NCBI GenBank assembly: GCA_963833425.1
Contig: CAWHXP010000019.1
Span: 1-15,568, forward strand
Direction of reading: 5' to 3'
DNA: 15,568 nt
Source: an uncultured Methanosarcinaceae archaeon
GTDB taxonomy: Archaea > Halobacteriota > Methanosarcinia > Methanosarcinales > Methanosarcinaceae
Under the pieces are notes generated by a model, which saw only the letters and a list, made by a program, of their open reading frames with translations, was not told the origin of the DNA and made no database searches. The position numbers were made by a program, and so were the translations under genes. Of this stretch, positions 905 through 15,466 are shown piece after piece. Position 1 is the stretch's first letter. Every line of letters begins with the position of its first letter.

Positions 905-2176
905 ATGGAAGGTGCATGGTATTATTACAAATATCGCAGGTTTATAAAATGGTTAGGTTTATATTTGGCACTTGCTGGTCCAGGTATAATTGTGATGGTC
1001 GCGGACAATGATGCAGGTGGTATCACGACCTATGCTGCAACAGGTGCCAAATTCGGCTTTAACTTAGTCTGGTTTTTAATACTACTTGGCCCAGTAGCAT
1101 ATGTTGTTCAGGAGATGAATGTGCGACTAGGAGCGGTCACCAAACGAGGACATGCAGAAGCTATATTCGATGCTTTTGGCTCGTTTTGGGGCTGGTTCTC
1201 GTTAATAGATTTGGGCATTTTGGATTTCCTTACGATGGTAACTGAGTTTATAGGAATGACCGCTGCTCTAAAGATATTTGGTGTACCGCCTATATTGACG
1301 ATAATAGCTGTCTCCATCTTGATGATCACCATATTCGTTCACGGGAGATACTGGACATGGGAAAAGATAGTACTCCTTTTCTGCTTACTCAATCTAATCT
1401 ATATTCCTGCGATTCTGCTTATTCACCCCAATTATAGTGATGTCATCAAAGGTTTGATTCCAGTTATTCCTATCAGCGGGTTCACAGGTGATTTTTTCTT
1501 CTTTTTCATGGCGAATATAGGGACTACGATAGCTCCATGGATGATATTCTTCCAGCAGAGCTCAGTAGTAGATAAGGGTATGACTGAGAAAGATATTCCC
1601 TTTGGGAAATTCGATACCGCAGTTGGTGCATTCTTCACAATAGTAGTTGCAATCGCGTGCGTAATTCTCACAGGCACATTGCTCTTCAAGCCCGGTGGAG
1701 TAGATATAAAAAGTGCTGCTCAAGCTGCAATTGCGATCATGGGCAGCTATCCACTCGTTGTAGTGGCCTTGCCATAGGACTCTTCGATGCAGGACTTCTT
1801 GGAGCCATATGCATATCATTGACAAGCTCATGGGCTATGGGCGAGGTTTTGGATGGGCTCATTCTATCGACAACAAGGTTTCAGAAGCCCCTATGTTCTA
1901 TTCCTTTTATTTCCTGAGCTTGATTTTCGCTGGCTTGGTTGTAATAACCCCAGGGGCTCCGTTGGTGCTGATAACTCTTTTCGTGCAAGTGATAACTGTT
2001 ATTCTTCTTCCTGAAACTCTGGTTTTTCTGCTACTTCTGCTCAACAATGAAGAGATGATGGGGAAATATAGAATACCTTAATGCAAAATATTTGGGGTTT
2101 TTTGATTGTATTTATTATAATTATTGTCTCGACTCTTTATGCTTTAAGCGTGATCTTTCAGGAGATGTTTAAATGA
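905..2176 (+). pseudogene. NRAMP-related divalent metal (probably Mg2+) transporter with three -1 frameshifts (pseudogene or sequencing errors)
   Basis: GPGIIVMVADNDAGGITTY (TM1), QEMNVRLG and GTTIAPWMIFFQQS (TM6). The reading continues across ORFs 905, 1657 and 1809 (AIGLFDAGLLGA, FGWAHSID) and finally NTLMQNIWG...QEMFK to TGA at 2174-2176. Shifts near 1769, 1848 and 2071. Confidence 0.85.
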
Positions 2177-2443
2177 ATGCGGATACCATAGAAAACGATC
2201 AGGAGACGAGAAATATGATAGACTAGGTTGATGACACATATGAGAAGGGAAGGATCAGCTATGTGGTAAGAAGATATAAAAAGCAGTAAACAATATCAAC
2301 AAGAATCCCAGTAAGCCACAATTGAAGACGACCCCTTTGGTCAGGGTTTTGTTCATCGCTCATAGACAGTATTATTTAATATGGAAAGATTAATATTAAG
2401 TTATAAATTCTACACTATAGTGAGGTAAGCGGGAGACAGGTGC

Positions 2444-3719
2444 ATGAAAGACAATCTTACTAACAACCAACCTGAAAGCATCTTTTTTTTGAGTGAAGTG
2501 ATGAAGACAGATGTCCTCCTCAATGGCCAAAAAATAGGAAAGCTCTTAGATCTCATCGTACTTGAAAAGGATAAGGTGGCAGAGGTCACACATATTGTAG
2601 TAAGTCGATCTTTTGGTTATTCTTCATTGATGGTACCATGGAATAATGTAAGTTCATTCAGTGAAAAGGAGATAACTATAGATATTGACGAGGTAGAAAA
2701 ATTCACCTGCAAAATACCTGAAGGATTTATCCTTCTGAAAGATTTCATTTTGGATAAGAAGATTTTAGATCTAGAGGATACTGAGGTTGAGATCGTCTAC
2801 GATATCAAAATGGTTATGTCAAAAAACAGACTTTATATAACTGACGTGGATCCATTTGAAGATGCTCGCTTCCGAAAGCTAGGTCTTGATAAATTTGCTA
2901 ATTTTATTCACATGGAACGTGACAAAAGCAAGGATGTACTTATCCCATGGTCCTATGTTCAAGCTCTGCCCTCTAATATTGGAAGTTTTACTGGCGATGT
3001 TAAGTTAAAGATATTAAAGGAGAAACTGAACGATCTTCCACCTGTGGATATTGTGGAAATTTTAGAGGAATTGGATCACGAGGCAGAGACTGACCGTTAT
3101 CAATCAGCTCGAAGAAGAGCATGCGTCTGATACCTTAGAGGAAATTAATCCGAATATGCAAAGGGAGATCATCACCTCTCTGACTAAGGAAAAAGTTGCA
3201 GACTTGATTGATATGATGACGTCTGGCCAGGCAGCTGACGTCCTGTCGGTTCTGACTTTGGAGGATCAAGAAGCGATAATGGAACTGATGGATGAGGAAA
3301 ATCTCAATAAGATAAAATCTATCCTTGAGAAGCGACAGGATACGATATTCAACCTCATAACTGAGAGATATCTAAAAGCTCAGCCAGATGAAACAGTAGA
3401 GACTGTGGAGGATGCGTACCCCAAAAGAGCAAAGGGCAAAGATGAAATAATGTACATCCACGTAACAGATAAGGATAATGAGCTATTGGGTGTGATTGAT
3501 GTGAAGGAGCTTCTTCAGGCAGATAGTCAGGCACTTTTGAAGGACATCATGAATAAGAATGTCATAACCTTGGATAAAGAGAGTAGTATTGGAGAAGCCA
3601 CGAAGATGTTCTCTAGATATGGCTTCAGATCTCTTCCAGTGACAGATAATGATAATAAAATAGTTGGAGTTGTCAGTCAACGAGATATCGTAAAACTAAC
3701 ACTTCACTTCTCGGAGTGA
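2444..3719 (+). pseudogene. Soluble MgtE-like protein (PRC-barrel-like N terminus, MgtE N-terminal repeats, CBS pair), split by one +1 frameshift near 3082
   Basis: LPPVDIVEILEELDHE joins QRLTVINQLEEEHASDTLEEINPNMQREII if one G is removed. AADVLSVL repeat. CBS motifs LLGVIDVKELL and SLPVTDNDNKIVGVVS. No transmembrane domain. Confidence 0.8.
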
Positions 3720-3886
3720 AAAATGATTTTATTATAAATTACCTCCAATTAATCACTGAAGACTTACAGCAATTGATACAAATTATTTAAATTCTATTTA
3801 AGAATTAATTATTTTTCGAAAATTAATATGACCGTTTTACCATCCCTAAGTGATTTATATTACCTGTAGATTTGGGTGATTGAATT

Positions 3887-4558
3887 ATGGTTCAGAAACA
3901 ATATTTAAGGCAGTTGGATTTGCTCAAAGAATCAGTAATTTCATTTGGAAAGATGGTTGAACTTATTTTCTGCGATTCGATAGATGCATTTATAGATCTG
4001 GATATCAAAGTCGCTAAAAGAGTGCTTGTCCTTGCTGCAAAAATGAATAAATATGAGGAAGGAATTGAGGTTTCTATTTCGGATCTGCTTGCGCTTCAAC
4101 AGCCTATAGCTAGCGATCTCCGGCTAGTCACATCTGCTCTTCAAGATTTCAGCAGAGCTAAAGAGGATTAGTGAACTATCAATCAATATTGCTCAGATTC
4201 CCGGGAAAATCGAAGGTGAGCATGTAAGATATCTCATGGATATTAAAAAAATGTCAGACATTGCAACATATATGCTTGAGAATTCCCTGAAAGCTTTTGA
4301 GAATCAAGACACTGAGCTCGCAAAAGCTACGGCAGCTCGAGACGTGATATAGACCAGCTCTTTTACGTAATCTGGGTTGAATTAATAAAAATGATGGCAA
4401 AAGATGCGAGCATCATTTCCAGAACTACATATTTACTTTTTTTGATTCGGTACATTGAAAAAATTGCTGATCACTGCTGTAATATCTGTGAGAGTGTAGT
4501 TTATCTTACTACGGCTGAGCGGATCAAATTAAACGGAATATATATTGAGACTATCTGA
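3887..4558 (+). pseudogene. phoU: Phosphate signalling complex protein PhoU with two frameshifts (~4139 and ~4343)
   Basis: LLALQQPIASDLRLV, then in shifted frames KISAELKRISELSINIA and IRYIEKIADHCCNICESVVY, which are the two PhoU repeats. Stop TGA at 4556-4558. GGGTGA RBS upstream. Confidence 0.88.
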
Positions 4559-4623: not shown

Positions 4624-5626
4624 TTGCACTTTCCATTTTATAAGCGCCATGATGAAGATTTCCAAGCCTGGCAAAAACCATTAAATGATGTTTTATCCAA
4701 CTTTGGTGCTAAGCTATTCAATCCACTCCTGGCAAATCTTCTACCTCAAATAAAAAGATTGATTCTCCTGCCTTCTAGCGGTCTATTTCTGTTGCCCTTA
4801 CATACAATTCCTCTAGCCGATGGCCAGCTTCTCTGTGAACGTTATTGCATAAGCTACGCTCCTTCCATTCAACTCTCAGAGAAATGCGAAATAAGGCTGG
4901 GACAATTGAAGAAAACGGTCTCTATGTGGTTATCAATCCTGGGGAGATCCTTCTCTAGTCTTTTCAGGATTTGAAGGCCAAGCTATATCCAATTTTTTCA
5001 GTTTTTCCCAGATAAATATTGGTAAATTTGGTACCAGAGCAACAATCTTAGATAAAGTACCTTGAAATACATGTCTCCATTTCTCTTGTCATGGCAGCTA
5101 TCACTGGAACGATCCAACCAGTCTATATTGTACTTATTTGGAGGGCGAACTCTGAGCTTAGAAGATCTTCAAAGTGATGCAGTTGATTTGTCCACATCTA
5201 GGTTGGTTACTCTCTCTGTCTGTGAAACAGGGATCACAGATATTGTAAAAGGCAGTGCTGATGAGTTTGTTGGCCTGCCTGCAGGTTTTATTCGCGGGTG
5301 TTCCCTGCGTGGTCAGCAGTCTCTGGTCAGTTCCAGATATTTCCACAGCCATATTGATGGAGCGGTTCTATTCCAACCATATTGCTAAGGGAATGGATGT
5401 TCCATTATCATTACAGGACGCTCAGCTCTGGGTCCGAGATCTTACTTCTAATCAGGTGAGAGATTATGTGGAAAAATGCTACAATTCAGGTAAATGGGAA
5501 GACAAGAGCAAGGAATTCATAGAACAATGCGGGGAACGCTACATCAAAATGGCAGAAGAATCTCCAGAAAATGAGCCTTTCCAGCATCCATATTATTGGG
5601 CAGCGTTTGCAGTTAATGGAGCATAA
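4624..5626 (+). pseudogene. CHAT (caspase-like) domain protein, C-terminal fragment with ~4 frameshifts and an in-frame TGA (5063-5065)
   Basis: CHAT motifs LILLPSSGLFLLPLH, ISYAPS, HFSCHG (5078-5095, in a frame not shown in the ORF track), LVTLSVCETG, VVSSLWSVPD, LMERFY and HPYYWAAF. No N-terminal region or credible start. Confidence 0.85.
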
Positions 5627-6872: not shown

Positions 6873-8114
6873 ATGGCACCAATGGATATGGTAATATTTT
6901 TCCTGGAGATCTCTGTGATGCTTTCCATAGCACTTTTGTGCGGTCATGTAATGAGGAGTCTTCGTTTTCCTGCGGTCCTGGGCGAGCTTTTTGGTGGCAT
7001 CATTCTCGGTCCGACAGTCTTTGGATGGTTTAGTCCAGGTACTTATCGATGGTTATTTCCAGCATCTGGTACTGTTTTTGAGGGCAGAGATGCACTAATC
7101 CAAATTTGCATTCTTTTCTTTTTATTCATTGCAGGTCTGCAAATGAACCTGAAGCTCGTTAGGAACAGCGGCATTCACATAGCATGGGCTAGCTTAATGG
7201 GCATATTGCTACCGTTTACATTTGGCTTCGGTATGGTCGTCATGTTTCCGAATATGTGGGAGGGGTATTTTAAGGGCGAAACATTTTTTTTTCGCGATGT
7301 TCATGGGAACAGCGTTGTCGATATCAGCTCTCCCGGTTATTGCTAGAACTCTCATGGACCTAGACTTGCTGAATACAGATATGGGGATGATAATTATTGG
7401 GGCAGCAACAGTAAATGATCTGGTAGGATGGTCTTTATTTGCTTTTATTCTGAGCAATTTCGCGCCTAATAGTATCATTAATATTTCTCCTTACATGATT
7501 TTCATTCTAGTGTTTTTGCTTTTTATTTTCATGCTCACTATAGGTCGGGTTCTGGCTCAGATAGCTCTTACCTGGCTCAAGTCACATATGCCCTGGCCAG
7601 GAGCCTTCCTTGGAATAACGACAATCCTTATATTGTTGACTTCAGCTTGTGCTGAAGCTATCGGGATACATGCTGTTTTTGGCGCTTTTTTGGTAGGTCT
7701 TGCATTCTCCCAGAACTTAAAGAAACTGGATGAAGCACATGAGATAGTCTATCAGTTCGTCATGTATTTTTTTGCCCCACTTTACTTTGTTTCAATTGGG
7801 CTACAGACGAATTTCGTAGCATCATTTGACCTAAACCTGGTGCTTGCAGTTCTTTTAGTTGCATGTATAGGTAAGGTGCTCGGTGTGATGCTTGGCCTAC
7901 GTGTGAGCAAGATTCCATGGAGGCAGTCTGCAGTAATAGGTTTTGCTTTGAACTCAAGAGGAGCAATGGAGATGATATTAGCTACTGTTGCCAGGAATGT
8001 GGCCTTATCAATGACCGCTTGTTTGTGGCTTTTGTTATCATGACACTGATTACGTCTATTCTAAGCGGCCTGATAATGAATAAATTAAATACTTTTGATC
8101 TTTCTATGGTTTAA
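6873..8114 (+). pseudogene. Cation:proton antiporter (CPA2, Na+/H+ exchanger family) with two frameshifts (~7290 in a T-run and ~7997)
   Basis: PAVLGELFGGIILGPTVFG, LFIAGLQM, ALSISALPVIARTL, AATVNDLVGW, GIHAVFGAFLVG, FAPLYFVSIGL and LNSRGAME, ending GLINDRLFVAFVIMTLITS to TAA at 8114. Confidence 0.85.
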
Positions 8115-8524
8115 ATATTATAAATTTCTCGATAATATATGCATATTTTTCATTTCTGATTTTAGTTTGCTTTGACTTTGGATCATCAAGGGCCTCAAAG
8201 AACATAGATGACAGCAATCTTTCACCCCAAAAGGTTGCTGTCATGGTCCGTGGGACTATAATGCTTTTCTTGCATTTAATCTACATGTAATCGGTAGAAA
8301 ATGGTACATTTCTCTAAGCTATAGAATAATCAAGTTATCAAAAACGTATACAAAAATTCTAAAATTTTCATTTTTACAGTGGAAATGAAGTGAAAATCAA
8401 ATACTGTAAACATTGTAATTTAATAAACAAAGAAGTTCAAAGGGTCTAGAGCAGATTTTACTGATAATTATGCACGTTGCCAACTAGAATAGGTCACTTA
8501 GATATTTCAGGCATTTTTTGCCGC

Positions 8525-8580
8525 AAAATGTAAGTTTTAATATTATCAATGAGTATTATGTATTGTAGCTCACAATGTGA
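8525..8580 (+). promoter_or_regulatory. Putative TATA promoter with downstream TCACAATGTGA palindrome (copy 1)
   Basis: TTTTAATA at 8535-8542 after an A-rich stretch. TCACA-A-TGTGA at 8570-8580. Same layout as at 11.7 and 12.65 kb. Confidence 0.5.
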
Positions 8581-8590
8581 CTAGCGTTAA

Positions 8591-8628
8591 AACAAGGCTG
8601 AAAGAAATACCACGCGACGAACTATAAA
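8591..8628 (+). pseudogene. Highly decayed tRNA-Cys-like 5' half
   Basis: AACAAGG-CT-GAAA-GAAATACC-ACGC-G-ACGAA-CTATAAA maps onto GCAAGGG-TT-GTGG-AAAGGCT-ACGC-A-ATGGA-CTGCAGA. It starts 10 nt after the palindrome, as the intact tRNA does. No folding potential remains. Confidence 0.35.
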
Positions 8629-8916
8629 CATTCCAAGATTCAACAAAAATACCTCCTAAGTTACTCGATCCTTGCTGGATATTCCTCACCTGAAGAACAG
8701 GTAGATAGGGTATTTCAGCTTCAGGAGAGAGTTTTCATAAATCAGTTTCTGATAAACCAGGACTCCGATTTATTGACGTATTTTTAACTTGCTTTCTACA
8801 GCATTGTTAAAATATTTCAATTTAAAAATCTGATGAAAAGTTGCTGTTATGCTTACAACGTTTCTGTTTTCCTTGTTTCATTGATGCATAGGTTTGTAAA
8901 GTAAAACATATGTATA

Positions 8917-8946
8917 TTCTCAATGTCAATTTTCTCAATGTCAATT
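8917..8946 (+). repeat. 15-bp tandem duplication
   Basis: TTCTCAATGTCAATT twice, exact. Confidence 0.85.
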
Positions 8947-9472
8947 TTTCAGAGAATTTCGATAAATTCCTACCATTTGAATATTGAAGCGTCTAAATCT
9001 CTTGACAACAATTTTTACTTATGAAAACACTTACTGATTTTATTCTTAAAGAATAACGTAAACGTTTTCAGTTAGTTGGGAACAAACTTCCTTAAATTGA
9101 TCCCTAAATTGATTGTAAATCTTTTCATATCATTTTTAAGTCCATATGTTTTAACAAAACAGTTTAAGGTCTGCCTCAGAGATTGTTTTATTAAAATATG
9201 TACACTCAAAAATTATACGAAAATATCTTTTATAGTTATGGCGAATTTCGATAAGACCCTATATTTCGTTAATATTATTCGAAGTAGGTAATAGGTGACA
9301 ACTAATGCGATTATAGACTTTCTTGCAAGCCTTCTCAGAGTATGATTGTTGTTCTAAATCTGGCATCGGTATTCTAACTCTGGCATGATTATCTGAATTT
9401 ACCTGAGTCATTCCATATATTGCCGGATATGTTATGTTTTTGGGTTTTTAAGGGACAAAAATTCATTTATCT

Positions 9473-9486
9473 GAAAGTTTTTAAAT
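9473..9486 (+). promoter_or_regulatory. Putative BRE/TATA promoter of thiI
   Basis: GAAAG-TTTTTAAAT about 30 nt upstream of ATG 9515. There is no SD site, consistent with a short or absent leader. Confidence 0.4.
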
Positions 9487-9514
9487 CTCATGTCACCTGT
9501 ACTACTGATTATCC

Positions 9515-10825
9515 ATGACAGACAAATCAAATGATGCTGAAACAAAAATTGAACTTGATGCTCATGCTCAGAGAAAAAACAGAAGCATACTAAAGAAGTA
9601 TGATGAAAATGGATCTAGATTTTGTTCTGGCTCCTCCCATTCAGGGACTGAAGTTCCGACAGATGTGGTTATAGTCCGTTATGGAGAGCTTGCTCTTAAA
9701 AGTTCTGGAATTAGAAACTGGTATGAGAAAATCCTTATAAAAAATATTGCAGCAATGTTAAATTCTAGAGAAATTCCATATTCTCGAATTCGTCGGGAAT
9801 GGGGCAGGATATTCATTGAGACTATTGATTCTCATGCTGCCGAAGCAATAGCTAATGTTTTTGGGGTTGTCTCAACTTCCGCTGCGTTGGCAACAGAACC
9901 CAGCCTTAAGGATGCAGCTAGTGTATGTGCAACTCTTGCTCAAAATTTTATTTGTGAGGATGAGTTGTTTGCAATCAGAGCAAGGAAAAGTGGAAACCAT
10001 CCTTTTTCCTCAGCAGATATTGGTAAAGCCTGTGGAGACGCGGTCTGGAATTTCCTAGAGAAAGAAGGTAAACATCCTGGAGTTGACCTGACGTTTCCTG
10101 ATAAGGAAATCTTCGTCGAAATGCGACAAAACTTAGCGTATATTTATCTAAAAACATTTAAAGGGGTTGGAGGGCTTCCACTTGGTACACAAGGCAGCAT
10201 GGTAGTTCTAATATCAGGAGGACTTGATTCTCCGGTTGCTGCCTGGCTTATGATGAAACGTGGAGTTATGATCATCCCGGTCTATTGTAATAATACTCCT
10301 TATGCCCAGAACGAAGCAAAAGAACGTGCTTTTGATTGCATTCGCCAACTTCATAAGTGGGCTCCAGGGCATCAGTTTACAACTTATGAGATTCCTCATG
10401 GTCCTAATCTGCAATCCTTTATCGCAAAATGCAATCGGAAAAATACCTGTCTTCTCTGTAAACGCATGATGTACAGAGAAGCCTATGAAATTATGAAAAA
10501 GGAAAATGCCAGTGGGATTATCACCGGCTCTTCTCTCGGACAGGTGGCATCTCAAACTGCTGCCAACATGTATGCTGAGGTTTATCAACTTCCGATTCCC
10601 GTCTACCACCCTTTGATTGGCTTTGACAAAACAGAAATTATGGATATGGCCCGCAAAATTGGAACCTACGATATCTCCAATCAATCAGCAGGAAGCTGTA
10701 CTGCCGTTCCGGAACGTCCAGAAATAGGGGCAAATTACGATCTGATTGCACTCGAAGAAAAAAAGCTGGATATCGAAACTATGGTCTCCAGTGCTTTAAA
10801 AGCCACAAAGGTCCTTAAACTCTAA
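9515..10825 (+). CDS. thiI: tRNA 4-thiouridine(8) synthase ThiI (methanogen type, no rhodanese domain)
   Basis: VRYGELALKS, THUMP domain, GVGGLPLGTQG, PP-loop SGGLDSPVA, CLLCKRMM (CxxC), GQVASQT, PLIGFDK, and a third Cys in GSCTAVP. Confidence 0.96.
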   Translation: MTDKSNDAETKIELDAHAQRKNRSILKKYDENGSRFCSGSSHSGTEVPTDVVIVRYGELALKSSGIRNWYEKILIKNIAAMLNSREIPYSRIRREWGRIFIETIDSHAAEAIANVFGVVSTSAALATEPSLKDAASVCATLAQNFICEDELFAIRARKSGNHPFSSADIGKACGDAVWNFLEKEGKHPGVDLTFPDKEIFVEMRQNLAYIYLKTFKGVGGLPLGTQGSMVVLISGGLDSPVAAWLMMKRGVMIIPVYCNNTPYAQNEAKERAFDCIRQLHKWAPGHQFTTYEIPHGPNLQSFIAKCNRKNTCLLCKRMMYREAYEIMKKENASGIITGSSLGQVASQTAANMYAEVYQLPIPVYHPLIGFDKTEIMDMARKIGTYDISNQSAGSCTAVPERPEIGANYDLIALEEKKLDIETMVSSALKATKVLKL

Positions 10826-11686
10826 TAAGGATAAAACCATTTTTCAAATTTTAATTTATAATTCACAGTAACATATTAATTATTTTAATCTATTTGAGAA
10901 TTACTTATATTTTAGGAAAATTTCTATTACCACAACAAGCTGCGTGATTCATCATCTCTAAAGAAACATTGAAGCTGTTTTTTATCGGATATACTGAGGT
11001 TAGTGGGATGAAAAAAGAAGTGTGAATGTCTAAACCATGAAACCTATTTACTATTTTTGTGAATTTAAATAACTAATTCATTGGGTGATGAAATTGTCCT
11101 AAAGGCCAATTTAACATTCGTGATCAAAGTCACATTTGAGCCTTATATAGTAATTTATATAATATTTTTAAGACAGTTTTAAAAAACAAAATTAAGACAA
11201 ACTTCTTACTTAAATAACTACATAGTCAATCTTAAAAAGTTATACAGTACATATATTCTTTTATTTGAGACTTTTGTTCTCGAAGAATAATATCTTTGTT
11301 TCTAAGCTACTGTCATGTTGAGATAATAGAGGGTTTTCTTGTGTACAGCTACGGAGGTGGTATTAAATGATTGTATATTCATATTTAAATTAGTTGATAT
11401 TTTGAGAAACCTATAATTTAGCAACTATCTTAATTCCAATTTATTCTGAATAATTATAAATTATTTTGCAGGTTTCTTCTCTTTCGGAATTCAGGTACGC
11501 ATTAACCTTATACGAGAGTATTTTATCTAAATTGTGGAATCAAATCTAGTTTTAAGACAGAGCCTTTATGTGACTGTGTCATCGGGCTCAAATATATCCC
11601 TCAGATCACTTTTAGATTGCCTTTCAGCTACCAAGAGAAAGTATTGCTTAGGATCATGCGAGATGGTTTGAGGCACTTTTTATCGT

Positions 11687-11745
11687 AAAAAATGGGTTTT
11701 AATATTAACGAGGAATATAGTGTGTTGTCTGTTCACTATTGTGAA
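11687..11745 (+). promoter_or_regulatory. Putative BRE/TATA promoter with downstream TTCACTATTGTGAA palindrome (copy 2)
   Basis: AAAAAATGGG-TTTTAATA (TATA 11697-11704), ATAGTGTG, then an imperfect palindrome at 11732-11745. Colinear with 12645-12701. Confidence 0.6.
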
Positions 11746-11753
11746 TTGATTTT

Positions 11754-11795
11754 TTCGGGGTGGTGGTTGGTTACGCAATGAACTGTAGATCCATT
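11754..11795 (+). pseudogene. tRNA-Cys-derived 5' half (D arm and anticodon arm, anticodon position GTA) lacking the T arm and 3' acceptor strand
   Basis: TACGCAATGAACTGTAGATCCATT (11772-11795) versus TACGCAATGGACTGCAGATCCATT (12730-12753): 22/24 identical. Upstream GGG-TG-GTGG..GG is also retained. Similarity stops after the anticodon stem. Confidence 0.75.
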
Positions 11796-11841
11796 ATATA
11801 TAGAGCAGATAGAAATGTGAATTTAAAGCAGGTAAGAACAC

Positions 11842-12336
11842 ATGAATCTAAAGGGTTAAAGTATAAAGGGAGCGATATTTGAAAGAACGAAGCATATTGT
11901 CCGAAACATTGATGAGCATGCAGTTGGAATAGCCTCTGAAGTTCTTGATGACGAACGTACAATTGAAATAGCCTGGGAAGCTCTTAATTTATTTGAACTG
12001 TACATTATTCTGCGTATAGTAGAACAAATGTTTCTGGTAGCTGAGTATATGCTTCTGGAAGTTAGAACTAGTCCTATTCACCTGATTGAACCGAACTATG
12101 GTCAAGGTATGGAGTTAATAGGTGATTTCTTTGAAAAAGGAGAATCTCAGCTACGGCAAATATTAAGAGCATATAGCATTTCAGAAACAGAAATCAATGT
12201 GCTGAAATCTTTAATGACTAGTTCTATGAATGAGATATCGTCATATAATATTTTATTCATGGAACCCGGTAGAACATCAGCTTATCCTTCGGTTTCGCAT
12301 TTAATCGAAGCCTTGCCCTACTCCTATTGTTGTTGA
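11842..12336 (+). pseudogene. Hypothetical protein (~164 codons) with in-frame TAA at codon 6; ORF 12028-12336 is its 3' part
   Basis: The frame of ORF 12028 is open back to 11860. In-frame ATG at 11842 is preceded by AGGTAAG. Reads MNLKG*SIKGAIFERTKHIVRNIDEHAVGIASEVLDDERTIEIAWEALNLFELYIILRIVEQMFLV... No family recognised. Confidence 0.55.
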
Positions 12337-12643
12337 TTGAATTCATTTCAACATTACAAACTTCATTTTTTTGTTGTTATATTAAAATTACTATCAACGC
12401 AATAATTTCCAAGAATAAGACATATTTTTGGTGCCGAATATTTTCAAGCTGACCTTACCTTTGTTTTCTCTAATTCCCCCTTTTTTTGATAGGTGTGGCA
12501 AAAAAATTTAATGAATCTCCTTTGTTTATCGAGTTCTTTTACTTGGATTAATGTCCTCATACTAAAAATGACATAAGCAGCATTTATTCATTTGAACTAG
12601 CTCAATGCAGAAAGCATCTTTATTTGAGTTTCCTTTTCCCTAT

Positions 12644-12701
12644 GAAATAGGTTTAAGTATTTGAATACTGTAATAGTATGCTATAAGGTCACAATTGTGA
12701 C
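12644..12701 (+). promoter_or_regulatory. BRE/TATA promoter of the tRNA-Cys-pscS-metY unit with perfect 14-bp palindrome GTCACAATTGTGAC (copy 3)
   Basis: GAAATAGG-TTTAAGTA (TATA 12652-12659). Palindrome at 12688-12701. The tRNA starts at 12711. Confidence 0.7.
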
Positions 12702-12710
12702 TAAATTATT

Positions 12711-12782
12711 GCAAGGGTTGTGGAAAGGCTACGCAATGGACTGCAGATCCATTTTACCCCGGTTCGATTCCGGGTCTTAGCT
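12711..12782 (+). tRNA. tRNA-Cys(GCA) with atypical acceptor stem, no intron, no encoded CCA
   Basis: Cloverleaf: acceptor GCAAGGG/TCTTAGC, D stem GTG/CGC with GG in the loop, anticodon arm ATGGA-CTGCAGA-TCCAT, T arm CCCGG-TTCGATT-CCGGG, discriminator U73, G37. Confidence 0.92.
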
Positions 12783-12795
12783 TAGAGGTAATCTC

Positions 12796-14184
12796 ATGGA
12801 TATAAGAACACAAAAGACTTTTGAGGCTCTTTTTGCCCTTGAAGATATTAGGGAGGTCCTCAGACAGTCACTTCCAAATATCACAAGTCTGGAAGAAGAA
12901 CACTCCATTAAAGAAGGTGTAAATAAAGTCAGGAATATCCTGGATGAAATAGAGAACGGTACTGGAACTCCACAAGTTAGGAAGATAGCAGATAATATTG
13001 ATATCCGATCCAGAGAAGAAGCATATATAAATATACAGCCAATCCAGGCAGCTGGAAGACTTACTCCTGAAGCACGAAAAGCGCTTATAGCGTATGGAGA
13101 TGGCTATTCCACCTGTGATGCCTGCCGCAAACCTTTCAGGCTGGACAAAATCAAAACTCCGCCTATCGCAACGTTTCACGAACAACTCGCTAGCTTCCTT
13201 AATATGGATGTTGCACGCGTAGTGCCAGGCGCAAGGCGTGGTTTCCAGGCAGTGACTTCCACTCTTGTTAATAAAGGTGATTCAGTGATAGTCTCATCTC
13301 TGGCTCACTATACAGAGTTTCTGGCTGTTGAAGAGGCAGAAGGAACAGTAAAGGAAGTGCCTGTGAACGAGCACAATATTGTTACTGCAGATGCAATTGC
13401 TGAGAAGATTGAAGCGGTTAAGCAGGAAACAGGCAAACTACCTGTGCTGATAATGATCGATCACTTTGATTATCAGTATGCCAATGAACATGATGTAAAA
13501 GGCATATCAAAAGTTGCACATCAGTATAATATTCCTTTCCTATATAATGGCGCATACACTGTTGGGGTCATGCCAGTGGATGGAAAGGAAATTGGCGCAG
13601 ATTTTGTCGTAGGATCAGGCCACAAAAGCATGGCATCACCTGCACCGTCTGGAGTGCTGGCAACAACCGACGAATGGGCTCCTAAGATATTCCGCACTAC
13701 ACAGATGGTTGGTGATGTCACAAAACGCAAGTTTGGCATCAAAGAAGTGGAGATGCTTGGCTGTACATTAATGGGTTCGACATTGATAGGTATGATGGCT
13801 TCTTTCCCTACTGTCAAGAATAGAGTACATAATTGGAAAGAAGAAGTAAAAAAGTCAAACTATCTGATTGATGGTCTACTTGCTGTAGAAGGGGGTAGAG
13901 TTCTCTCAGAATACCCACGCAAACATACCCTTTCAAAAGTTGACACAAGTAGAAACTTCGATCTCATCGCACAGAGCCATAAACGCAAAGGTTTCTTCCT
14001 TTCAGATGAGCTCTCAAGCAAGGGCATTATTGGGGAATTTGCAGGAGCTACACGTATATGGAAATTAAACACTTACGGGCTTTCCTGGGAGAAAGTTCGC
14101 TATGTAGTAGATACTTTCCAGGGCATTGCTGAGAAATACAAAATTCAAGTAAACAGGGAGAATGATTCCAATGGTAGCAAATAA
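12796..14184 (+). CDS. pscS: O-phospho-L-seryl-tRNA:Cys-tRNA synthase (SepCysS) with ~60-aa N-terminal extension
   Basis: [22 protein letters not shown] (CxxC), [22 protein letters not shown] lysine in [14 protein letters not shown] and [14 protein letters not shown] at 12785-12789. Confidence 0.96.
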
Positions 14185-15466
14185 CTATAAACTAGGAACT
14201 ATTGCCCTTCACGCTGGACAGATTCCAGATCCAGCTACAGGAGCACGGGCAGTACCGATCTATCAAACTACGTCTTATGTATTCCGGGACACGGATCATG
14301 CAGCTAATCTTTTCGCCCTCCACGAGCTTGGTAATATCTACACTCGCATAATGAACCCAACTACTGATGTTTTCGAACAGCGTATAGCTGCCATTGAGGG
14401 TGGTACAGGAGCACTTGGAGTTGCATCCGGTTCAGCAGCAATAACCTATGCTCTATTAGCGATTACCAGGCTTGGGGATGAAATTGTCTCTGGGAACAAC
14501 CTGTATGGTGGAACCTATGAACTTTTTAATTATACTCTCCCTAAGTTGGGAAGAAAAGTTATATTTGTGGATTCGACTGATCTGAAAGCATATCAACATG
14601 CTATTACTGAAAAAACGCGGGCAATTTATATTGAATCAATAGGTAATCCAAAATTGGATATTCCTGATTTTGAGGCGCTCGCAAATATTGCCCATAAAGC
14701 TGGAATCCCACTTGTTGTAGACAACACGAGTGCTGTAGGGCTTGTTCGGCCAATTGATCATGGAGCAGATATCGTTGTGCATTCGGCAACCAAATTTATC
14801 GGTGGGCATGGAAATTCAATTGGTGGATCCATAGTCGATTCCGGGAAATTCTCCTGGAACAATGGCAAATTCCCGGAATTGACAGATCCTGATCCAAGTT
14901 ATCACGGTCTGAAATACTGGGATACATTTTCAGAATTCCCGGATCTTGGTAATGTAGCATTTATTTTCAAAATAAGGCTGCAACTTCTAAGGGATACAGG
15001 TGCTGCTCTTTCGCCTTTCAATGCTTTTCTATTACTTCAGGGACTTGAAACACTGCATCTGAGGATACAGCGACACTCAGAAAACGCTCTCGTTGTAGCA
15101 AAATACCTTTCAGGCCATCCAAAAGTCTCATGGGTTAATTATCCAGGTTTACCGAATCATCCAAGTCACGAGCTTGCATCTAGATACCTCAGAGGTGGTT
15201 ATGGCGCTTTGATAGGTTTTGGCGTGAAGGGAGGTATAGAAGCAGGTAAAACTTTTATCAATAATCTGAAGCTGTTTTCACATGTTGCTAACATAGGAGA
15301 CTCAAAAAGTCTTGTCATTCATCCCGCAACTACCACACACCAGCAGCTAACCCCAACTGAACAAGAGGCAACAGGCGTTAAGCCAGATTACATACGACTT
15401 TCCATTGGTATTGAGGATGTCGAAGATATAATCTCAGATCTTGAACAAGCTCTTGAAAAAGTGTAA
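14171..15466 (+). CDS. metY: O-acetylhomoserine/O-acetylserine sulfhydrylase (MetY/Met17 family)
   Basis: [44 protein letters not shown] lysine in [32 protein letters not shown] and [11 protein letters not shown] 14171 is preferred over 14162 because GGGAG (14156-14160) lies 10 nt upstream. Confidence 0.93.

Follow-up and report, generated by a model that had tools for sequence, protein, structure and literature searches.

Predicted operator of a sulfur, cysteine, and Fe–S regulon in Methanosarcina and tandem duplicates of the tRNA-Cys–SepCysS promoter that carries it

The window analyzed here is the entire 15.6-kb contig CAWHXP010000019.1 (15,568 nt; contig C19) of a 4.07-Mb, 21-contig genome of an uncultured Methanosarcina (GCA_963833425.1). 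It contains a sulfur locus in which a TATA-like box, a palindrome, and a tRNA-Cys or part of one recur three times (copies 1 to 3; Table 1). We consider it likely that the palindrome, TTCACAAT[T/C]GTGAA, is the operator of a factor that governs a sulfur, cysteine, and iron–sulfur (Fe–S) regulon in Methanosarcina and several other methanogen families, that this factor is a small helix-turn-helix (HTH) protein encoded next to iscS, and that the three copies descend from a repeatedly duplicated promoter region of tRNA-Cys and SepCysS (Sep-tRNA:Cys-tRNA synthase).

The palindrome at promoters of sulfur genes

The palindrome is strongly over-represented in the genome. The 14-mer TTCACAATTGTGAA occurs 5 times, against 0.05 expected, and its 12-nt core, TCACAATTGTGA, is found 8 times, against the 0.35–0.47 expected under Markov models of orders 0–4. 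Among 209 palindromes built from permuted half-sites, with the real half-site excluded, the mean count was 0.07 and the maximum was 4, so that none reached 5 occurrences. The sites and their close variants are located in the intergenic promoters of iscS-iscU-thiF, cysK, metX-CBS, a larE-like PP-loop gene, a second SepCysS, and the canonical tRNA-Cys of contig C16, and also at two paralogous genes for the HTH protein.

The same motif is found upstream of SepCysS in many other methanogens. We surveyed 78 SepCysS loci for which 300 nt or more of sequence preceding the gene was available (19 Methanosarcina-like and 59 from other genera). TCAC-N4-GTGA is present at most 600 nt upstream of the gene in 73 of them, namely, in 16 of the 19 and 57 of the 59, the latter including Methanoregula, Methanolobus, Methanospirillum, and Methanothrix; none of 78 gene-internal control stretches of 600 nt contain it. 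In 18 of the Methanosarcina-like loci and 42 of those from other genera, these 600 nt also encode a tRNA-Cys. Many of these promoters (42 of the 73) carry a second operator-like site at most 40 nt upstream of the main one. In the SepCysS promoters of other genera (loci L027-L086; 15 promoters inspected), the first site, TATAAATA-TTCACAATTGTTAT, mostly abuts the TATA box, and the main site, TTCACAATCGTGAA, follows ~28 nt on; the center of the site in the promoters of these genera is AATC in 36 cases and AATT in 29. Where a TATA pattern matched, the distances from TATA to the main site cluster at 27–29 nt (6 loci) and at 35–38 nt (11 loci), and the 35–37 nt spacing in the window falls in the second group.

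The exact sites are similarly placed in other genomes. In a complete Methanosarcina genome (G001), all three lie within a single 4.3-kb stretch, that is, before the O-acetylhomoserine (OAH) sulfhydrylase gene, between iscS-iscU and the candidate regulator gene, and before cysK-cysE; in a genome from another family (G278), the sites are located between the regulator gene and iscS and before the gene for a CCG-type iron-sulfur protein. The gene order in G001 resembles that around iscSU2 of M. acetivorans, which clusters with methionine and NAD biosynthesis genes (PMC7585200); the passages on iscSU2 in that paper name no regulator.

The first-pass annotation of the window, made from the sequence alone, had suggested that the three copies represent a reusable sulfur- or cysteine-responsive expression module, such that the palindrome should be enriched upstream of cys, met, isc, and pscS genes and be better conserved than its flanks. 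The enrichment is described above. As for conservation, among the 8 genomes of the window's clade, the mean pairwise identity is 0.85 in the palindrome and 0.89 in the promoter core, compared to 0.71–0.72 in the two spacers. Thus, the part of the proposal that concerns the promoter and the palindrome is supported, both in this genome and in other genera; the part that assigns a role to a tRNA-like RNA leader is not, as discussed below.

Candidate regulator and proposed mode of action

The cognate factor is most likely the HTH protein, which consists of ~120 amino acids and contains an HTH-like segment and four invariant cysteines (alignment positions C9, C91, C94, and C104). Its gene adjoins iscS and is itself preceded by the operator. 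Homologs are encoded in 239 of the 301 sampled genomes of the phylum, and of 30 regulator loci, 24 have TCAC-N4-GTGA at most 300 nt ahead of the gene. The exact 14-mer was detected in 50 of the 301 genomes, with few sites in each; a comparison by hand showed that in 23 of 35 genomes it is no more than 300 nt away from the regulator gene. Neither copy of the regulator in this genome matches any Pfam family, Rrf2 included, and searches of NCBIfam and of the PDB sequences returned nothing relevant. When a structural model of the protein (mean predicted local distance difference test score, pLDDT, 75.8) was compared to the PDB with Foldseek, no match was obtained at E ≤ 0.001, and only generic HTH entries were returned.

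Archaeal transcription starts roughly 25 nt after the TATA box, so that an operator beginning 35–37 nt after the start of this box would be positioned at or just after the transcription start, covering either the start site or the first transcribed bases. The simplest mechanism would be repression through a block to RNA polymerase: as a dimer, the HTH protein would bind the operator and, where present, the TATA-abutting site and so prevent recruitment of the polymerase, and this repression would be relieved or imposed by the sulfur or Fe–S status of the cell. The four cysteines might provide the sensor, either by holding an Fe–S cluster or as a thiol/persulfide switch.

The predicted system is reminiscent of CymR and IscR, the bacterial Rrf2-family repressors of cysteine and Fe–S cluster genes, in that palindromic operators are found at cysK, iscS-iscU, and other sulfur genes, the regulator gene with its own site stands beside the isc genes, and conserved cysteines suggest Fe–S or thiol sensing. 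Unlike those repressors, the candidate described here belongs neither to Rrf2 nor to any other Pfam family and lacks a relative of known structure, the promoters are of the archaeal TATA type, and the putative regulon includes a tRNA gene along with the tRNA-dependent cysteine enzyme SepCysS. NrpR, the nitrogen repressor of methanogens, acts at pairs of palindromic operators that follow closely on the TATA box, and the tandem sites in more than half of the operator-bearing SepCysS promoters recall this archaeal arrangement of one or two palindromes over or after the TATA box and the start site. The motif, the protein, and the pathway (nitrogen vs. sulfur) all differ.

Several observations weigh against this interpretation. 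The putative DNA-binding role of the candidate regulator comes from names given in the source databases ('predicted transcriptional regulator') and from the HTH-like sequence of a protein that falls in no family. The exact core is rare elsewhere, with only 2–3 sites each in G001, G133, and G278; regulon size varies, and the high count in this genome comes partly from duplicated loci. A site with exact arms is missing in 5 of the 78 SepCysS loci and 6 of the 30 regulator loci. Seven RNA runs were found, with small shares each, and the four that we compared consist entirely of contigs, at 90–99% identity, from relatives or paralogs; these contigs carry no information on starts, ends, or strand for the locus. 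One of them (X4, record 30) crosses the copy 2 promoter, which fits read-through or library DNA rather than a local start. Finally, in an assembly as rich in frameshifts as this one, the palindrome of copy 1, the start codon of the gene behind copy 2, and the junction within the tRNA of copy 3 could be errors.

In the open papers, we found no description of this operator–regulator pair or of tRNA-Cys pseudogenes in Methanosarcina, and no regulator of sulfur, cysteine, SepCysS, or Fe–S genes in methanogens. The passages on tRNA-Cys genes linked to SepCysS in Mukai et al. 2017 (PMC5424206) mention neither the operator nor tandem duplication nor pseudo-tRNA copies. We are evenly divided as to whether, in Methanosarcinales and Methanomicrobiales, sulfur assimilation is governed by a hitherto undescribed master switch made up of the operator and the four-cysteine HTH protein. 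Such a switch would sense sulfur or Fe–S status through the cysteines of the protein and control the synthesis of cysteine and homocysteine, Fe–S assembly, sulfur-transfer enzymes, and, unusually, a tRNA gene along with tRNA-dependent cysteine synthesis, and would recruit additional genes, for example, the one behind copy 2, through tandem duplication. If the operator reading is right, a defined operator sequence, a candidate gene for the regulator, and a list of targets are at hand that are testable in the genetically tractable Methanosarcina species, and a tRNA gene would be subject to a metabolite-linked operator jointly with the gene for the enzyme by which cysteine is formed on this same tRNA.

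Duplicated, chimeric, and decayed tRNA-Cys units

The first-pass annotation had read a common architecture from the sequence of the three cassettes, and its TATA boxes and palindromes are indeed all present, with spacings of 35, 36, and 37 nt. The homology of the three cassettes, furthermore, is beyond chance. In blastn searches against the whole genome, copies 2 and 3 align with 69% identity over 136 nt (E = 7e-11) and copies 1 and 2 with 73% identity over 78 nt (E = 1.3e-6), and an nhmmer profile built from 21 cassettes of this genome and its relatives, with copy 1 left out, matches copy 1 at 8503–8625 (E = 4.1e-15). ARAGORN predicts a single tRNA in the window, Cys(GCA) at 12711–12782 in copy 3, which is also the sole Rfam match in the window at E ≤ 1 (RF00005, 40.5 bits vs. 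the gathering score of 29); copies 1 and 2 have no such match. Two of the copies stand directly before a coding frame, as was claimed: copy 3 ends 13 nt ahead of SepCysS, and copy 2 precedes an open reading frame (ORF) for a 157-amino-acid protein.

The extent of the duplicated unit can be read from a GGCA-N-TTTTTGCC element that is located upstream of the cassette TATA boxes and matches SepCysS codons ~8–17. In a close relative, this element is found at the exact junction between the relic of one unit and the TATA box of the next, which indicates that the unit would run from the TATA box to approximately position +50 of SepCysS. Thus, the unit that apparently was duplicated in tandem, repeatedly, comprises the TATA box, the operator, tRNA-Cys, and the first ~50 nt of SepCysS. 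The tRNA-Cys–SepCysS operon would have been one ancestral target of the operator, and one of the duplicates would have come to drive the gene behind copy 2 while its tRNA decayed to the 5′ half. The earlier suggestion that a tRNA-Cys promoter was duplicated and co-opted is upheld in this form: in copy 2, a different gene now stands behind a duplicate of the tRNA-Cys/SepCysS promoter region. The locus and its relatives provide a stepwise record of a promoter-operator unit spreading by tandem duplication, with the passenger tRNA decaying.

Additional decayed cassettes are present on contigs C16 (two), C15 (two), C9, and C8, and Rfam finds no tRNA in the pseudo-copies of the genome at E ≤ 10. The region 94302–98296 of C16 (L005) is a paralog of the window locus, with 81% identity over 3.2 kb, and encompasses a frameshifted thiI, its own homolog of the gene behind copy 2 (C16 95513–95983), a pair of decayed cassettes, and a canonical tRNA-Cys. 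SepCysS has been deleted here, and of the OAH sulfhydrylase gene the 3′-terminal 70 codons are left, immediately behind this tRNA. On C15 (46099–48124; L153), the second SepCysS (86% identical) follows a long leader with an operator and a degenerate tRNA-Cys that retains a perfectly paired acceptor stem (L026 has a similar one); yet another operator and pseudo-tRNA unit lies upstream of this leader.

The tRNA-Cys of copy 3 is, by its sequence, a chimera. The two canonical tRNA-Cys genes of the genome (C5 and C16) score 57.5 and 57.6 bits against RF00005, compared to 40.5 bits for copy 3, in which the acceptor stem contains an A3-A70 mismatch and two G-U pairs and thus falls short of seven regular pairs. 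In its minimum-energy fold, this tRNA does not form a cloverleaf (−17.4 kcal/mol, z = +0.59; 147 of 200 shuffled sequences fold as well), whereas the C16 tRNA folds as one (−24.4, z = −1.76). The origin of the chimera is suggested by the closest relatives, in which the gene order is thiI, unit A with a half tRNA, the homolog of the gene behind copy 2, unit B, unit C, and SepCysS. Unit B consists of a compact promoter, a pseudo-tRNA, and a SepCysS relic, and unit C of a promoter, a ~400-nt leader, and the genuine tRNA. Copy 3 tracks unit B up to approximately tRNA position 13 and unit C thereafter, and this combination of a pseudo-tRNA 5′ end with a genuine tRNA accounts for the reduced score as well as for the A3-A70 mismatch. 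Recombination between the two tandem tRNA copies, from the pseudo-tRNA to the genuine tRNA, would have deleted ~560 nt and placed a weak-stemmed chimeric tRNA directly behind the compact promoter. For annotation, this case is a warning: the tRNA-Cys before SepCysS here is a chimera, and several look-alikes of tRNA-Cys are pseudogenes.

The most serious alternative, although in our assessment an unlikely one, is that the chimeric tRNA, the short palindrome of copy 1, and the ATA start codon behind copy 2 are artifacts of assembly or of a bin that combines two strains, the true arrangement being that of the relatives. The assembly contains many genes split by frameshifts (CHAT, Na/H exchanger, LarE, MetX, PdxS, and two thiI copies), the second copy of the locus on C16 is 81% identical, no RNA contig spans 12700–12730, and the contig of one relative begins exactly at 12723, all of which would be compatible with an artifact. 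However, the two tRNA copies in the relatives have just ~30 identical bases in common, a short repeat to collapse, and the contamination of the genome is given as 1.35%. Moreover, the C16 locus has decayed in a different manner, through deletion of SepCysS and most of the OAH sulfhydrylase gene, which fits real paralogs.

Copy 2 illustrates the co-option of a duplicated unit by another gene. Homologs of the 157-amino-acid protein encoded behind it, which ends in SYCC (SSYCC or YCCC among the homologs; hereafter, the SSYCC protein), were detected in 21 of 58 other Methanosarcina genomes. The start codon is ATA in this assembly and ATG in 20 of the 21 other homologs listed. An operator-type palindrome precedes the SSYCC gene in all 22 upstream regions compared, albeit in a degenerate form in L090, and these regions form a series, from a full tRNA with a SepCysS-start relic, to the 5′ half, to no tRNA, with the TATA box and the operator present throughout. 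In distant species, the order is TATA box, operator, ~10 nt, full tRNA-Cys, ribosome-binding site, SepCysS-start relic, ~120 nt, and the ORF; the window's clade retains just the 5′ half of the tRNA; and in three species (L104, L106, and L107), the tRNA part is gone whereas the TATA box and the operator are retained. The SSYCC protein shows a weak match to the B12-binding_2 helical cap region of corrinoid proteins and MetH, which is a weak lead; on the strength of its cysteine tail and its place in the putative regulon, we would guess at a role in sulfur relay. Derivation of this protein from the N-terminus of SepCysS was considered and rejected, given that BLASTP finds no similarity (best E, 8.1). 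The ORF is covered by RNA contigs of relatives in four runs from two studies.

The series also bears on whether the tRNA-like leader is functional, for instance, as a processing signal for RNase P or RNase Z, or as a mimic of tRNA-Cys that binds SepRS, SepCysS, or another tRNA-Cys-binding protein and so tunes translation. The persistence of the 5′ half in the 8 genomes (mean pairwise identity 0.82), the paired acceptor stem of the degenerate C15 tRNA and its counterpart in L026, and RNA contigs of relatives that join such a pseudo-tRNA to SepCysS (with loose ends at 12778) could be taken in favor of this possibility. However, the remaining leader is conserved to the same extent (0.82), below the promoter core, 2 of the 8 genomes carry single-base deletions within the half-tRNA, and the folding energies are in the range of shuffled sequences (z = 1.29 for copy 1 and 0.08 for copy 2). 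Furthermore, the pseudo-copies are not recognized as tRNAs, and three species have lost this part altogether but not the TATA box and the operator. For these reasons, the tRNA parts are read as relics rather than as a working RNA device, and a function of the leader appears quite improbable. The E. coli thrS operator and T-box leaders are examples of tRNA mimics in leaders, and the likeness lies in a tRNA-like sequence within the leader of a gene of tRNA-linked amino-acid metabolism; here, in contrast, there is no conserved structure, covariation, or stability beyond that of shuffled sequences, and the element is lost in some species, so that the resemblance is best put down to descent from a real tRNA gene. 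The first-pass annotation had offered neutral debris as the alternative to a module, and this description fits the tRNA parts; the promoter and operator behave as a module.

A further alternative, which we regard as even less probable, is that the palindrome works as a hairpin in the RNA of the 5′ leader, affecting processing or stability, or as some other DNA signal, rather than as the operator of a transcription factor. At the spacing observed in the window, the palindrome would be transcribed into the leader of the pre-tRNA or mRNA. This reading is at odds with the sites that abut the TATA box in other genera and those that lie between divergent genes; with the preservation of the arms as sequence, without compensatory changes, around a center that is either AATT or AATC; and with the co-localization of the palindrome with one particular HTH gene in many genomes.

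The palindrome of copy 1 is one base shorter than the canonical operator; this 11-mer occurs just twice in the genome, and the alignment with the profile places a 1-nt gap within the palindrome, reflecting either a true deletion or an indel error. The tRNA part is only faintly supported. A hidden Markov model of the tRNA 5′ half alone found no match in 8582–8645 (27 of 2000 shuffled sequences gave some match). When the test was anchored on the promoter, the tail of copy 1 scored 56.6 bits, compared to 47.6 ± 0.9 for shuffled tails (maximum, 53.4), a gain of ~9 bits that was reached by none of 1000 shuffles. A full-length tRNA relic was rejected, as the alignment of 8626–8735 with the tRNA 3′ half and the SepCysS start scores 7, below the shuffle mean of 8.6, and 966 of 1000 shuffles score at least as high. 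The stretch 8567–8733 is uncovered by RNA contigs in the four runs. Control of thiI by copy 1 is unsupported: the palindrome and the gene are 945 nt apart, a 90-copy repeat intervenes, and in the closest relative thiI is not preceded by a promoter with the palindrome. Copy 1 looks like an orphaned, decayed unit with no evident target gene.

Integrase target sites typically show partial duplicates of tRNA genes, and dispersed repeats lie nearby, at 8736–9169, but it is extremely unlikely that the partial tRNA-Cys copies are attachment-site debris of mobile elements, given that the duplicated piece is a promoter with a tRNA 5′ half instead of a short 3′ segment, that the 14 window ORFs scanned include none with an integrase or transposase domain, and that the SepCysS-start relic behind the tRNA in the intermediates and the match to codons ~8–17 before the TATA box fit tandem duplication of tRNA and SepCysS.

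Features of the window

The features discussed above are listed in Table 1. The SepCysS protein encoded in the window is 94–96% identical to those of metagenome-assembled Methanosarcina genomes.

Table 1 Cassettes and sulfur genes of the window
Feature	Position	Strand	Remarks
Copy 1 GGCATTTTTTGCC element upstream of TATA	8510..8522	+	Apparent relic of SepCysS codons ~8–17 from the preceding unit; intermediates in relatives
Copy 1 TATA-like box TTTTAATATT	8535..8544	+	Within the profile match 8503–8625
Copy 1 palindrome TCACAATGTGA, 11 nt	8570..8580	.	One base below the canonical operator
Copy 1 tRNA-Cys 5′ part, faint relic	8591..8625	+	Anchored profile test
thiI (tRNA 4-thiouridine sulfurtransferase)	9515..10825	+	Begins 945 nt after the copy 1 palindrome; dispersed repeats in the interval
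Copy 2 GGCACTTTTTATC element	11672..11684	+	Read as a SepCysS 5′ coding relic
Copy 2 TATA-like box TTTTAATATT	11697..11706	+	Promoter core 0.89 mean pairwise identity, 8 genomes
Copy 2 operator TTCACTATTGTGAA	11732..11745	.	Palindrome TCACTATTGTGA begins at 11733
Copy 2 tRNA-Cys 5′ half relic	11754..11798	+	D arm and anticodon arm, anticodon loop CUGUAGA; not detected by tRNA searches
SSYCC ORF, 157 amino acids	11863..12336	+	ATA at the start-codon position
Copy 3 TATA-like box TTTAAGTATT	12652..12661	+	Sequence reading, profile match
Copy 3 operator GTCACAATTGTGAC	12688..12701	.	Palindrome TCACAATTGTGA begins at 12689
Copy 3 tRNA-Cys(GCA), chimera	12711..12782	+	5′ ~13 nt from the pseudo-tRNA of the upstream unit; remainder identical to the canonical C16 tRNA-Cys
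SepCysS (Sep-tRNA:Cys-tRNA synthase), N-terminally extended	12796..14184	+	TIGR02539, 414.7 bits (cut-off 365.25)
OAH sulfhydrylase/homocysteine synthase	14162..15466	+	Overlaps the SepCysS 3′ end

Upstream of the sulfur genes, at 905–4171, the window encodes a fragment of an Nramp-type metal transporter, an MgtE-N/CBS protein, and a PhoU-domain protein, with no link to the cassettes seen. Two repeats are located between copy 1 and thiI. One of these, at 8944–9169, is a dispersed repeat of ~220 bp, with 90 copies of at least 150 nt in the genome at 68–81% identity and many more in related genomes; it resembles a miniature mobile element, although clear terminal inverted repeats were not seen. 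The other, at 8736–8934, adjoins it.

The frame-split genes, encoding a CHAT-domain protein, an Na/H exchanger, a LarE-like protein, MetX, PdxS, and two extra copies of ThiI, are broken across two or three frames. They are found in the window (4624–5626 and 6873–8043) and on contigs C11 (137–933 and 7819–9178), C16 (93270–94189 and 97020–98296), and C8 (605238–606546), and reflect either an indel-prone assembly or the decay of many paralogs.

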